Source of the DNA: Longimicrobiales bacterium
GTDB taxonomy: Bacteria; Gemmatimonadota; Gemmatimonadetes; Longimicrobiales; Gaopeijiaceae
NCBI GenBank assembly: GCA_965238005.1
Contig: OZ250165.1
Coordinates: 1,920,001 to 1,984,000, forward strand
Reading direction: 5' to 3'
Length of the DNA stretch: 64,000 nt
Made by a program: the position numbers. Of the stretch, positions 21,001 through 24,000 are shown in pieces. Within the stretch, counting starts at the first letter, position 1; each line of letters opens with the position of its first letter.

Positions 21001-24000
21001 CGATGCCCAGGTTGTCCAGGGCCAGCATGATGAAGGTCGCCCAGACCCCGAAGCGGATGAGAAAGCCCACCGAGTCCATGGCCGTGGTGATGGTCGGGTC
21101 GCCCTCGAACTTCCTCGCTGCCCAGCTCCCGAGGAGGTAGTTGACGACGCCGTTGGCCCAGAACGCTCCCTGGATGAGGAAGCCGACAACGAGGAGGCGC
21201 GTGAAGATCGAATCGATTTCGGGTGCAAGCTCGAGGGTGCGCGCCCCGGCGTAGACGGCGACCAGCGCCACGAACAGGCCCTTGGTCTTCTCCAGGAGCT
21301 CGGTGACGAGATCGTCGATGTCCGTCTCCGTCTGTGCAGCCAGGGCCTTCATCCGGCTCAACACGATGCGGAAAACGATCCGGACGGCGGCCCACACGAC
21401 TGCCGCGACCACCAGCGCGATGATCCAATCGAGGGCCGTGTTGCCCAGGAACAACGACCTGCTCAGGAAATCCTGTATGACGTCTCCAGCGATGCGTGAA
21501 ACCGAACACGGATTTGGGCGGATGCCCAGGAAAACTGTCGGTGATGAAGCGGGGGAGCAACCGTAACAGGGATGATCCCCACGCAAAGGTTGACACGCCC
21601 TGGAGGCTTATCTATCATCGCACGTGCCGCATATGATTTTACCGTCGGTAGAGGCCCCATGAGGGCCGTCGACCCTCGGTCGGAATTCTCCGACCAGGCC
21701 GTGGAGGAGGTGTCTCCTCCGGCCTGGTTTTCGCTTTTAGGTGAGCCGAGCCCCGTGCGTTCCACCCCCTTCCACACCCAGCACCTAGAGGAGTTGTGCC
21801 CATGAGCCTCGATTCCCTCGTGTATGACGTCGAAGCGTTTCGTGAAGAGATGGAGGACTACGTCGACGAGCTGGACTCCCGAGACGGGCTGTCGCTGAGC
21901 ACGTCCGAGGACGTTCTCAACTACGTCGAGGAGTACGGAATCTCGTCGATCCGCATTTGGTTCACCGACATGATCGGATTCCTCAAGTCGTTCTCCATCA
22001 CACCCAAGGAGCTCAAGGGAGCTTTCGACGAGGGGATGGGCTTCGACGGTTCGTCCATCGAGGGTTATCGGCGCATCCAGAAGAGCGACATGGTGGCGCT
22101 GCCCATCGCCTCCACGGCCCAGGCGCTCCCTTTCCGGCCCGGCGGCTCGCGCTCGATCCGCATGTTCGCCGAGATCCGAACTCCGGACGGGAGCCCGTAT
22201 ATTTCGGATCCCCGGGTCATTCTCTCGCAGACCCTCCAGCGTCTGAACGATCACGGCTTCTCGCACATGAACATCGGACCCGAGGCCGAGTTCTTCTACT
22301 TCAAGGACGAGACGGGTCCGACGCTGCTGGACAACGCAGGGTACTTCGACAACCATCCCGTGGACGTGGGAGACGACCTTCGAGAGGCCACGGTCTTCGC
22401 CCTGGAGGCCATGGGCGTGCCCGTCGAGTATCACCACTCAGAGGTCGGGCCGTCGCAGCACGAGATCGACATCCGCTATCAGGAGGCGTTGCGGATGGCC
22501 GACAACCTCCAGACCTACAAGTATCTGGTGAAGGAGGTCGCCCGGCGCTGCGGAGTGTTCGCCACGTTCATGCCCAAGCCCATCGCCGACGAGAACGGCA
22601 GCGGCATGCACGTGCACTTGTCGATCTTCAGGGATCAGTCCACCAACGCGTTCTACGACAAGAGCGACCCGCATCACCTGAGCGCCACGGCCAAGCACTT
22701 CATCGCCGGCGTCCTGGACCACGCCAGGGAGATCGCGCTCATCACGAACCAGATGCACAACTCGTACAAGCGCCTGGTGCCCGGCTACGAAGCTCCCGTC
22801 TACATCGCCTGGGCCGAGGCGAACCGGTCCGCCGCCGTGCGGATCCCGCTCTACAAGCCAGGTAAGGAAGTAGCCACCCGGATGGAGCTGCGCTTCCCGG
22901 ATGCGACCTGTAACCCCTACCTGGCGTTCAGTGTCATGCTTTCCGCCGGGTTTGACGGGTTAGACAAAGAGATGGCGTGTCCGGAGCCCATGACGATGGA
23001 CCTCTACAGCCTAACCACGGTCGAGCGGGAAGAGATGGATATCGCCGCCCTTCCCCACGACCTGTTCGAGGCCGTCCACGTGGCCGAACACAGCGAGTTT
23101 CTGAAGACCGCCCTCGGCGCCGATGTCCACAAGAAGCTGATGGAGACCAAGCTTGTCGAGGCCGACAAGTTCAGGCTGCACGTCTCGGAGATGGACCTCA
23201 GGGAGCACCTGAAGCTCTGATCAGACCGCCCTCGTGACGGAATCCTCGGCCGGCGCGGCCGGGTCCTCTGGGTGAGATGACGAGTCGCCAGCCGACACCG
23301 CAGTGGACCCATCCCTCCTCTCCTCCCGCCAGAACGAGATGGCGAGTAGGACGGCGCCGCACGAGATCGCCATGTCCGCGACGTTGAAGATCGGCCAGAG
23401 CATGACGCCGAGATCGATGGGTCCGATGAAGTCGACGACACCCCGATCCCACCGGAGCCGATCGTAGAGATTCCCCAAGGCTCCTGAGATGACCAGCGAG
23501 ACGGAAACGAACCGAAGGCGATCCTGTGGACCCGCCTGCCTCAGCAGGACGAGAAGCAGAATCAGCGCCAGAATCGTAATGGGTATGAAGAACCAGCGGG
23601 GATCGTTGCCCAAGGAGAGTCCGAAGGCCGCACCCCGATTGAATGCGAGGGTCAGGGGGACGTAGCCGAAGAACAGCTCCATCCGTCGGCCACCGTCCAA
23701 GGCGGCAAGAGCCCAGTTTTTCGTGATCAGGTCCAGCACGATCACGATCGGGAAGATCCCGAGGAAAACGAGTAGTTTCTGTTTCACGAGCCTTCGATTG
23801 CAGTGGAAATCCCGGATTTGAGGCCCCCGAATCTCGCGGCGAGCCTCATCGCACGCCAGAGGGGTGCAACGCGGTCCTCGACGTGAGAGGCACGGGGTAC
23901 ATCTTTAACGGGAGGGACGCTCGACACGTCTAGGTATCAGAAGCGACCCTATCGGGAGTCGGCCATGAGCGCACTCGCACGAGCCTCGCTCTACATCGCA

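Follow-up and report, generated by a model that had tools for sequence, protein, structure and literature searches.

The bacterial glutamine synthetase gene glnA is known to be controlled by transcription factors, by PII and GlnE, by small proteins and by glutamine riboswitches. How is it controlled in the Longimicrobiales genome (G000, 95.85% complete) from which the 64,000-nt stretch analyzed here (the window) was taken? In this genome, no PII, ammonium transporter (Amt), GlnE or ANTAR protein was found, and none of its many sigma-54-type regulators was over the cut-off for NtrC; thus, few of the known glnA controls are in view, GlnR and TnrA being outside this search. A conserved leader RNA ahead of glnA, claimed in a preliminary description, was borne out: it lies between the promoter and the gene, the segment 21620-21760 folds better than 200 of 200 shuffled sequences (z -4.74), and the full element, with a central and a final hairpin, was found in 51 of 66 distinct upstream regions. 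The leader is a real, undescribed cis-regulatory element confined to one Longimicrobiales family. In the reading that we prefer, to which we give an even chance, it attenuates transcription by means of a ribosome on a leaderless upstream open reading frame (uORF) of almost free sequence, and reads ribosome dwell time, not a named amino acid.

The glnA locus and the distribution of its leader

The promoter, the ribosome site and the gene are located as follows.

21590..21595, + strand: -35 box TTGACA of a sigma-70-type promoter (pattern scan, 1 found against 0.1 expected)
21613..21618, + strand: -10 box TATCAT (pattern scan; conserved across upstream regions)
21619..21623, + strand: G+C-rich 5-nt spacer from the -10 box to GTG, probably untranscribed, as judged from promoter geometry
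21788..21793, + strand: Shine-Dalgarno-like GAGGAG of glnA (sequence), about 60 nt 3' of the final hairpin and outside it
21802..23220, + strand: glnA, type I glutamine synthetase (TIGR00653, 470 bits against a cut-off of 429; Pfam Gln-synt_N and Gln-synt_C)

This glnA is the single glutamine synthetase match of the genome. The closest relatives of the protein are titled Longimicrobiales or Gemmatimonadota, and its nearest full-length matches in the PDB are the short (about 445-aa) Gram-positive/archaeal enzymes (e.g. 7tfa and 4lnf; E about 1e-121 to 1e-114). The promoter (TTGACA-17-TATCAT, 21590-21618) matches the consensus at 11 of 12 positions, and a TTGACN-17/18-TANNNT site was present in 61 of 65 upstream regions. 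The leader had been given a fixed start, UCGCRCGUGCC; this sequence is conserved, but it begins inside the -10 hexamer, and its first six letters are most likely promoter DNA. Since the conserved start is made up of the last T of TATCAT, the 5-nt spacer and the GTG with the C that follows it, promoter geometry places the 5' end of the RNA most likely at about 21624-21626. The extent first proposed (21615..21760) covers the conserved leader but overshoots it, conservation ending with the U-tract at about 21738. The gene preceding the promoter is on the opposite strand, and therefore the hairpins downstream of the promoter are part of the glnA transcript. The final hairpin ends about 60 nt upstream of the Shine-Dalgarno-like site and thus does not occlude it.

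The GlnA type of the window was present in 57 of the 251 family genomes searched. We collected 66 distinct upstream regions of genes whose GlnA proteins are at least 60% identical; three of the 57 genomes (G187, G231 and G238) were left out. Apart from the 51 regions with the full element, three have the final hairpin only, with a different 5' part (L008, L135 and L146), five keep the 5' part and have lost the final hairpin (L067, L123, L124, L129 and L168), six are without the leader, and one is interrupted by a contig end. The losses are scattered over the protein tree (a quick version with many open forks). A covariance model found 33 places in 141 family genomes, all ahead of glnA of the window type, and 8 further weak places (E 0.006-0.047). 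It gave no convincing copy outside the family in 150 genomes of the phylum; of two weak matches, both rejected, one is a plain terminator-like hairpin and the other lies within coding sequence. At distant glutamine synthetase loci from 100 sources, there was no match below E 0.1. A pattern of the terminator, searched in 185,579 genomes, gave 27 matches, of which one was unrelated and 26 were ahead of window-type glnA, all of the latter being leader sequences already in the collection. Neither search found a copy at other nitrogen genes, and the terminator sequence belongs to no repeated family within G000. The unpublished genome G025 was among the genomes of the glutamine synthetase, ANTAR and phylum searches and of the distant-locus negatives, and supports no positive claim.

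Kinship inflates all of the leader counts (about 23 effective sequences among 40 alignment rows). Close kinship would also account for the conservation if the element were a leaky terminator under no regulation, serving to damp a strong promoter or to release a short RNA. The loss or degradation of the element in 11 of 66 upstream regions, with the terminator only in 3 more, would agree with this, as would the imperfect U-tract and the dominance of the terminator at equilibrium described below. However, the leader is kept between GlnA proteins down to 64% identity and in 26 of the 81 genera sampled (a tally that takes in a few weak matches), and there is covariation in three helices together with a protected frame; we give this explanation very little credence.

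Helices of the leader and their competition

The following structural features were recognized downstream of the promoter.

21641..21680, + strand: central hairpin P1 (regions 1:2, putative anti-antiterminator), from single folds and covariation
21653-21657/21663-21667, + strand: apical helix of P1, with the uORF stop (21660-21662) in its loop
21674..21698 (21674-21684 with 21689-21698), + strand: alternative hairpin 2:3, candidate antiterminator, which takes the 5' 7 nt of the terminator
21692..21729, + strand: final hairpin 3:4, intrinsic-terminator-like (-29.2 kcal/mol in G000; covariation)
21710-21717, + strand: terminator loop motif GTGTCTCC, conserved
21728..21738, + strand: interrupted U-tract (sequence)

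The mutually exclusive pairings 1:2, 2:3 and 3:4 are all present and are supported by covariation. The final hairpin is the best-supported helix. In 19 aligned leaders it had been credited with 14 pairs, 8 of them compensatory; the covariation holds in the 40-row alignment, although the count there is 13 consensus pairs, 5 of which are changed on both sides. Its basal helix is paired in 96% of the alignment cells, G-U is frequent on the glnA strand, and RNAalifold on the plain alignment gave this hairpin only. The U-rich tract that follows is present as claimed but imperfect, with 2-7 U in the first 8 nt (3-5 U in 41 of 54). The central hairpin, kept with the final one in the 51 regions mentioned above, also stands as first described: two-sided changes were found at all five pairs of its apical helix (83% of cells paired) and at all three pairs of its lower helix (71%). 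By itself P1 folds modestly, with a mean z of -1.36 in 32 leaders.

The GGUYGG/CCGACC alternative stem of the preliminary description exists, and in G000 it is lengthened by CCU/AGG; nevertheless, shuffled sequences do as well as 2:3 (z > -1) in 13 of 32 representative leaders. This stem is paired in 73% of the alignment cells. When nt 1-48 were removed, it hid at least 5 of the 7 terminator nt in 24 of the 32 leaders, against 11.2 expected. Furthermore, a change from U-A to C-G at one 2:3 pair (7 of 40 rows) accompanies a change from A-U to G-C at the terminator base (12 of 40 rows). At the level of sequence, this covariation, the site after a conserved promoter and the tie to glnA alone support an attenuator-type leader in which a stem competes with a terminator.

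With nt 1-48 blocked, the complete terminator still wins at equilibrium in 31 of 32 leaders; its base is removed in 1 and lowered by at least 0.2 in 6 of the 32. Because the terminator wins, the switch would have to be kinetic or to need a stabilising partner. In G000, the terminator and 2:3 are about even under the same block, and in the minimum-energy fold 2:3 is present and the terminator is shorter. When free, the nascent G000 RNA already prefers 2:3 at 72-100 nt, which we count against the attenuator reading. The bases before region 3 fit the pause-site consensus in 19 of 32 leaders; since the same bases also pair, this fit was not counted.

That 2:3 loses at equilibrium would be understandable if a ligand had to stabilise it. 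The leader could thus be an ON-riboswitch of an unknown kind, in which P1, region 2 and conserved terminator bases form the aptamer and the open frame is incidental. We consider this unlikely, though well worth weighing, and the same holds for the proposed stabilisation of 2:3 by a ligand of nitrogen status (2-oxoglutarate, glutamate or ppGpp). Most of the invariant and near-invariant columns lie within the final hairpin, its loop included; the loop motif holds its position while the pairing register shifts among lineages, and in genus g6 it recurs in the 2:3 loop. In addition, the segment lengths of the leader are nearly fixed. The conserved terminator loop, the competing structure and the fixed gene link (26 of 27 pattern matches ahead of window-type glnA) are signs of the HMP-PP (thiS) riboswitch class as described in PMC6478431, which shares with the leader a terminator loop of unusual conservation, an alternative fold and a single type of downstream gene. 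Unlike that class, the leader has no Rfam match, no pseudoknot that we found, and an extra 5' hairpin and open frame. Against a riboswitch, the covariation scan gave no well-supported pseudoknot or extra helix, few unpaired bases outside the terminator are invariant, no copy was found at any other nitrogen gene, and the depletion of stops in one frame and the long open frames of stop-loss lineages (see below) are left unexplained. If this reading were true, the leader would represent a new ligand class for nitrogen status.

Another explanation is a protein-controlled antiterminator: an RNA-binding protein, possibly the glutamine-inhibited glutamine synthetase, would bind the loops and shift the balance between 2:3 and 3:4. 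The short sequences conserved in the loops of both P1 and the terminator resemble protein sites, as does the pair of identical loops in genus g6. The enzyme also aligns residue for residue with the Gram-positive glutamine synthetase around the glutamine-feedback arginine. However, G000 gave no match to ANTAR, the obvious nitrogen-linked antiterminator; the same was true of 23 of 24 family relatives, and the 24th gave a match below the cut-off only. This search was positive in 7 of 8 genomes of family f3 and gave no match in 14 control genomes, so its sensitivity rests on f3. ANTAR-responsive leaders carry two hexaloops with A1 and G4. No such pair was seen here, the P1 loop being mostly the 5-nt Y-N-U-G-A and the 2:3 loop variable. 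Moreover, no regulator gene adjoins glnA within the window, and the frame evidence is left unexplained; we regard protein control as improbable. The conserved terminator loop, which the attenuator model leaves unexplained, keeps in play both the riboswitch, at its low probability, and the still less probable protein-bound switch. PII, present in 92 of 141 genomes, shows no clear tracking with the leader.

The candidate leaderless frame

The leader had been described as a pure RNA element, without an open frame. The attenuator part of that view, a terminator with a competing stem, is upheld by covariation, but a 12-codon frame from GTG to a TGA in the central loop had been missed.

21624..21640, + strand: 5' segment with little structure, where a ribosome may land (over nt 1-17, the pairing probability averages 0.23-0.39 in 32 leaders)
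21624..21662, + strand: candidate leaderless uORF of GTG, 11 codons and TGA (frame conservation; peptide sequence not conserved)

In all 38 core leaders, 5 nt separate the -10 box from the GTG (leaders that miss GTG there were kept out of this set), and the start bases G, T, G and C are conserved in 38, 38, 38 and 37 of the 38. Of the 51 full leaders, 39 have the stop as codon 13, among them L269, which was recovered by the covariance model after its building. Between codons 2 and 12, none of 32 representatives has an in-frame stop, against 5.6 expected from column shuffling. In the other two frames of the same representatives, 13 stops were observed against 14.6 expected and 6 against 5.4; since these frames fit their expectation, the test is calibrated. 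With L075 added, which has an early stop and is outside the 32, the count becomes 1 in 38 against 8.0. The clade of L075 is small and has otherwise lost the GTG. By parsimony, codons 2-6 have undergone 25, 48 and 51 steps at the first, second and third positions, so that the first changes half as often. The TGA is held 36 nt from the start G although the surrounding helix shifts register. In the A+T-rich lineages that have lost the stop (L119, and the close kin L067, L123, L124 and L129), the frame is open for 56-62 codons to the glnA start, whereas the other two frames together contain 4-11 stops (P 0.03-0.04 each). In four leaders that lack the uORF (L131, L173, L135 and L146), the C-G of the presumed start is retained and the T-G is not.

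The peptide itself appears free: the silent share is 0.15, versus 0.16 in the shifted frames. Among 31 distinct uORFs there is no conserved residue and no conserved Gln or Glu codon; Gln occurs in 6 of them (7 of 341 residues), Glu accounts for 9 of 341 residues, and Pro precedes the stop in 15 of the 31 only. An in-frame Gln codon in the 5' arm of the terminator was rejected, being broken by 1-nt indels in several lineages. A second uORF, starting from A/G/T-T-G in the P1 loop with a start-stop overlap, was likewise rejected as a conserved feature: its frame relative to the terminator and glnA varies, and other frames are equally often open. This rejection leaves unexplained that C never precedes the TGA (0 of 40, compared with 813 of 2321 long frames in G000).

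Several observations count against a uORF. Twelve of the 51 full leaders keep the hairpins without an intact uORF, some with the TGA out of frame. No leader opens the frame with ATG or closes it with TAA or TAG, although the latter two end 1798 of 4119 long frames in G000. In a survey of G000 promoters, the leaderless long ORFs with ATG behind 110 strict promoters numbered 0, 6 and 7 at 5, 6 and 7 nt past the -10 box, those of 324 looser promoters numbered 3, 11 and 8 at the same distances, and GTG showed no enrichment as a leaderless start. The GTG of the leader is thus one base nearer to the -10 box than the leaderless genes of this genome, which counts against translation, and an RNA start at the second G (21626) would remove the start codon. 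Furthermore, C(-1), purine(+1), T(+2) is given in PMC3898074 as the commonest start-site context of Mycobacterium tuberculosis; since this context is common in itself, C-G-T may be conserved without being a codon. On the other side, leaderless GUG starts are described as efficient in mycobacteria (PMC4633059). In G000, we found no other leaderless uORF with a terminator ahead of a gene. As far as sequences can tell, the evidence favours a translated leaderless uORF as the input of the leader over a pure RNA element.

Start-site switching operates at pyrC, codBA and upp. The uORF could likewise be real and its input the nucleotide pool, through the choice of start among G, U, G and C (positions 6-9 past the -10 box), or through polymerase speed setting the coupling as in pyrBI and pyrE. 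The invariance of G-T-G with a nearly invariant C (37 of 38), the position of the GTG at the edge of the G000 start window, the unconstrained peptide and the role of glutamine in feeding GTP and CTP synthesis would fit such a switch. There is, however, no conserved homopolymer run for reiterative transcription, and we think this explanation very improbable.

Proposed mechanism and known systems

In the ribosome-mediated reading, RNA polymerase would start at or next to the G of the GTG (21624), downstream of a promoter recognized by its conservation. A 70S ribosome would then bind the GUG at the 5' terminus, where about 17 bases are weakly paired, and translate 12 codons to the UGA in the 1:2 loop, as the conservation of the frame suggests. 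Without a ribosome, or after its quick release, 1:2 would form, region 3 would be free, 3:4 would be completed and transcription would stop near 21735. With a ribosome over region 1, 2:3 would pair, the base of the terminator would be withheld, and polymerase would read into glnA. These pairings are supported by covariation, and their order is our proposal. Region 1 would be masked, and region 2 available for pairing, whenever a ribosome stood between the middle of the frame and its stop; the presence of a ribosome would thus lead to read-through, and its absence or quick release to termination. More speculatively, because no codon or residue is conserved, the leader may respond simply to how long a ribosome dwells on it; under nitrogen shortage, with glutamine, glutamate and the amino acids derived from them running low, this time would increase. 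We infer nitrogen as the signal from the identity of the downstream gene only. A possible but doubtful extension is a codon-free nitrogen attenuator, in which the leaderless 12-codon frame, conserved in start, length and stop, switches glnA on when the ribosome lingers, perhaps together with a site for a ligand or protein within the terminator, and replaces GlnR, PII or NtrC control where these are lacking.

The trpL, hisL and Corynebacterium glutamicum ilvBNC attenuators share with the leader a short uORF over region 1 (a candidate frame in the leader), a stop between regions 1 and 2, and an anti-antiterminator, antiterminator and terminator with strands in common. In trpL, the stop codon lies in the loop between regions 1 and 2. 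Like these, the leader has predicted exclusive 1:2, 2:3 and 3:4 pairings and a G+C stem with an (interrupted) U-tract ahead of the gene. According to PMC11857589, the ilvBNC leader peptide also starts at the RNA 5' end and is near-leaderless. However, classical attenuators carry a run of cognate codons, and the 31 uORFs here have no conserved Gln or Glu codons; the leader also differs in its GUG start, in controlling glnA, and in that a ribosome at its stop would not reach region 2. Most likely, the leader works like ribosome-mediated attenuation although it fails the cognate-codon test. General ribosome stalling, rather than one amino acid, is what the uORF of toiL (PMC12121999) and uORFC-6-1 of the hflX leader (PMC8632094) are described to report. 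However, those serve toxin or ribosome-rescue genes, and toiL controls translation and Rho, whereas the candidate uORF here is leaderless, serves a nitrogen enzyme and is followed by a predicted intrinsic terminator. In mycobacteria, PMC4633059 describes leaderless RUG small ORFs ahead of metabolic genes; those carry Cys codons, whereas no residue is conserved here.

The claim that the leader matches no Rfam family was confirmed: no family reached its threshold (best listed E 2.7-3 on the window), and the leaders of 10 further loci gave no score near a gathering cut-off. The che1 RNA (RF02935) scored 16.9 bits (E 3) against a gathering cut-off of 54.1 bits, with no match at the 10 other loci. 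Glutamine riboswitches (the glnA and Downstream-peptide motifs) were absent among the matches to E 10 at the window and the 10 loci. The aptamer of the glutamine riboswitch is a three-way junction, whereas the leader has serial hairpins in the consensus and in single folds. T-box antiterminators have an invariant UGGN bulge; no T-box match was found in Rfam at the window and the 10 loci, and region 2 reads CGGA in G000 and genus g6. TnaC and SpeFL are arrest-peptide attenuators with conserved peptide residues, which were not found here, the silent share being equal in three frames. These tests place the leader outside the glutamine riboswitch, T-box, ANTAR, che1 and arrest-peptide families. 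Glutamine riboswitches, as described in PMC6212724, are likewise cis-acting leaders tied to the control of glutamine synthetase, but they occur in a different phylum, and the leader here ends in a terminator and has no Rfam match.

The covered parts of that paper and of two motif surveys (PMC8632094 and PMC11109978), supplements excluded, contain no such element. The literature covered, with subscription journals and motif-survey supplements outside it, contains no report of glnA control by a uORF attenuator. The leader with its almost free 12-codon frame suggests an undescribed way of tying nitrogen assimilation to ribosome dwell on a message. If the preferred reading is true, it would be a compact 115-nt design that senses the state of translation without cognate codons, from a phylum whose regulatory biology is almost blank. 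The leader is small, has natural loss variants, and could serve as a natural test case for control through leaderless GUG initiation.

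Variants of the leader ahead of glnA

In the leader ahead of the glutamine synthetase gene glnA, the candidate leaderless upstream open reading frame starts with GTG and normally has 12 codons. At four loci of the genus g38 (L067, L123, L124, and L129) and at L119, this frame is an open reading frame of 56 to 62 codons, which ends at, or overlaps with, the start of glnA. The four g38 leaders have lost the terminator, and the genomes carrying them are about 2 Mb in size. The long frames of g38 and L119 possibly represent a change from attenuation to plain translational coupling. 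One clade (L008, L135, and L146) retains the terminator, along with a short competing stem, but its entire 5' part is replaced; the GTG frame of L008 has 3 codons. The leader of L139 is shortened and has no terminator, its -10 region is duplicated, and an ATG occupies the place of the GTG seen in other leaders.

The whole genome that contains the window (G000) shows a clear leaderless signal, in which the ATG of long open reading frames lies 6 to 7 nt 3' of TANNNT boxes.

Nitrogen proteins and other glutamine synthetase loci

No PII, ammonium transporter, or GlnE was found in the whole genome of G000 (a single contig, 95.85% complete). The negative result for PII and the ammonium transporter is unusual, because these were present in 13 of 14 and in all 14 control genomes, respectively.

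At the following loci of another family in the same order (f3), a gene with an ANTAR domain is located no more than about 1.5 kb from a glnA that differs from the one in the window:

G026, contig C70 (L011)
G030, contig C181 (L015)
G034, contig C28 (L016)
G036, contig C216 (L018)
G038, contig C6 (L012)

This glnA is about 42% identical to the window type, and no leader of the window type was found ahead of it. The nearby ANTAR gene is a candidate for a separate nitrogen control.

In genome G002 (L010/L040), the glnA of the window type is split into three matches, with frameshifts after residue 330 and residue ~430; this genome has further glutamine synthetase genes.

Neighboring genes in the window

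A CorC/CNNM-like gene is located at 19046-20335, and such a gene was found upstream of this glnA type in 11 of the 14 loci tested. Also upstream of glnA is mscS, in which the frame is shifted by 1 nt at 20572-20573 (minus strand) compared with the copy in G001 (L031), and the normal C-terminus of mscS is present onward in a different frame; this is either a sequencing error or a recent break. Elsewhere, a UvrD-helicase/PD-(D/E)XK gene adjoins a PD-(D/E)XK gene (10923-17818, minus strand), forming an AddAB-like pair, and a DUF1800 and DUF1501 gene pair lies at 23965-27041.
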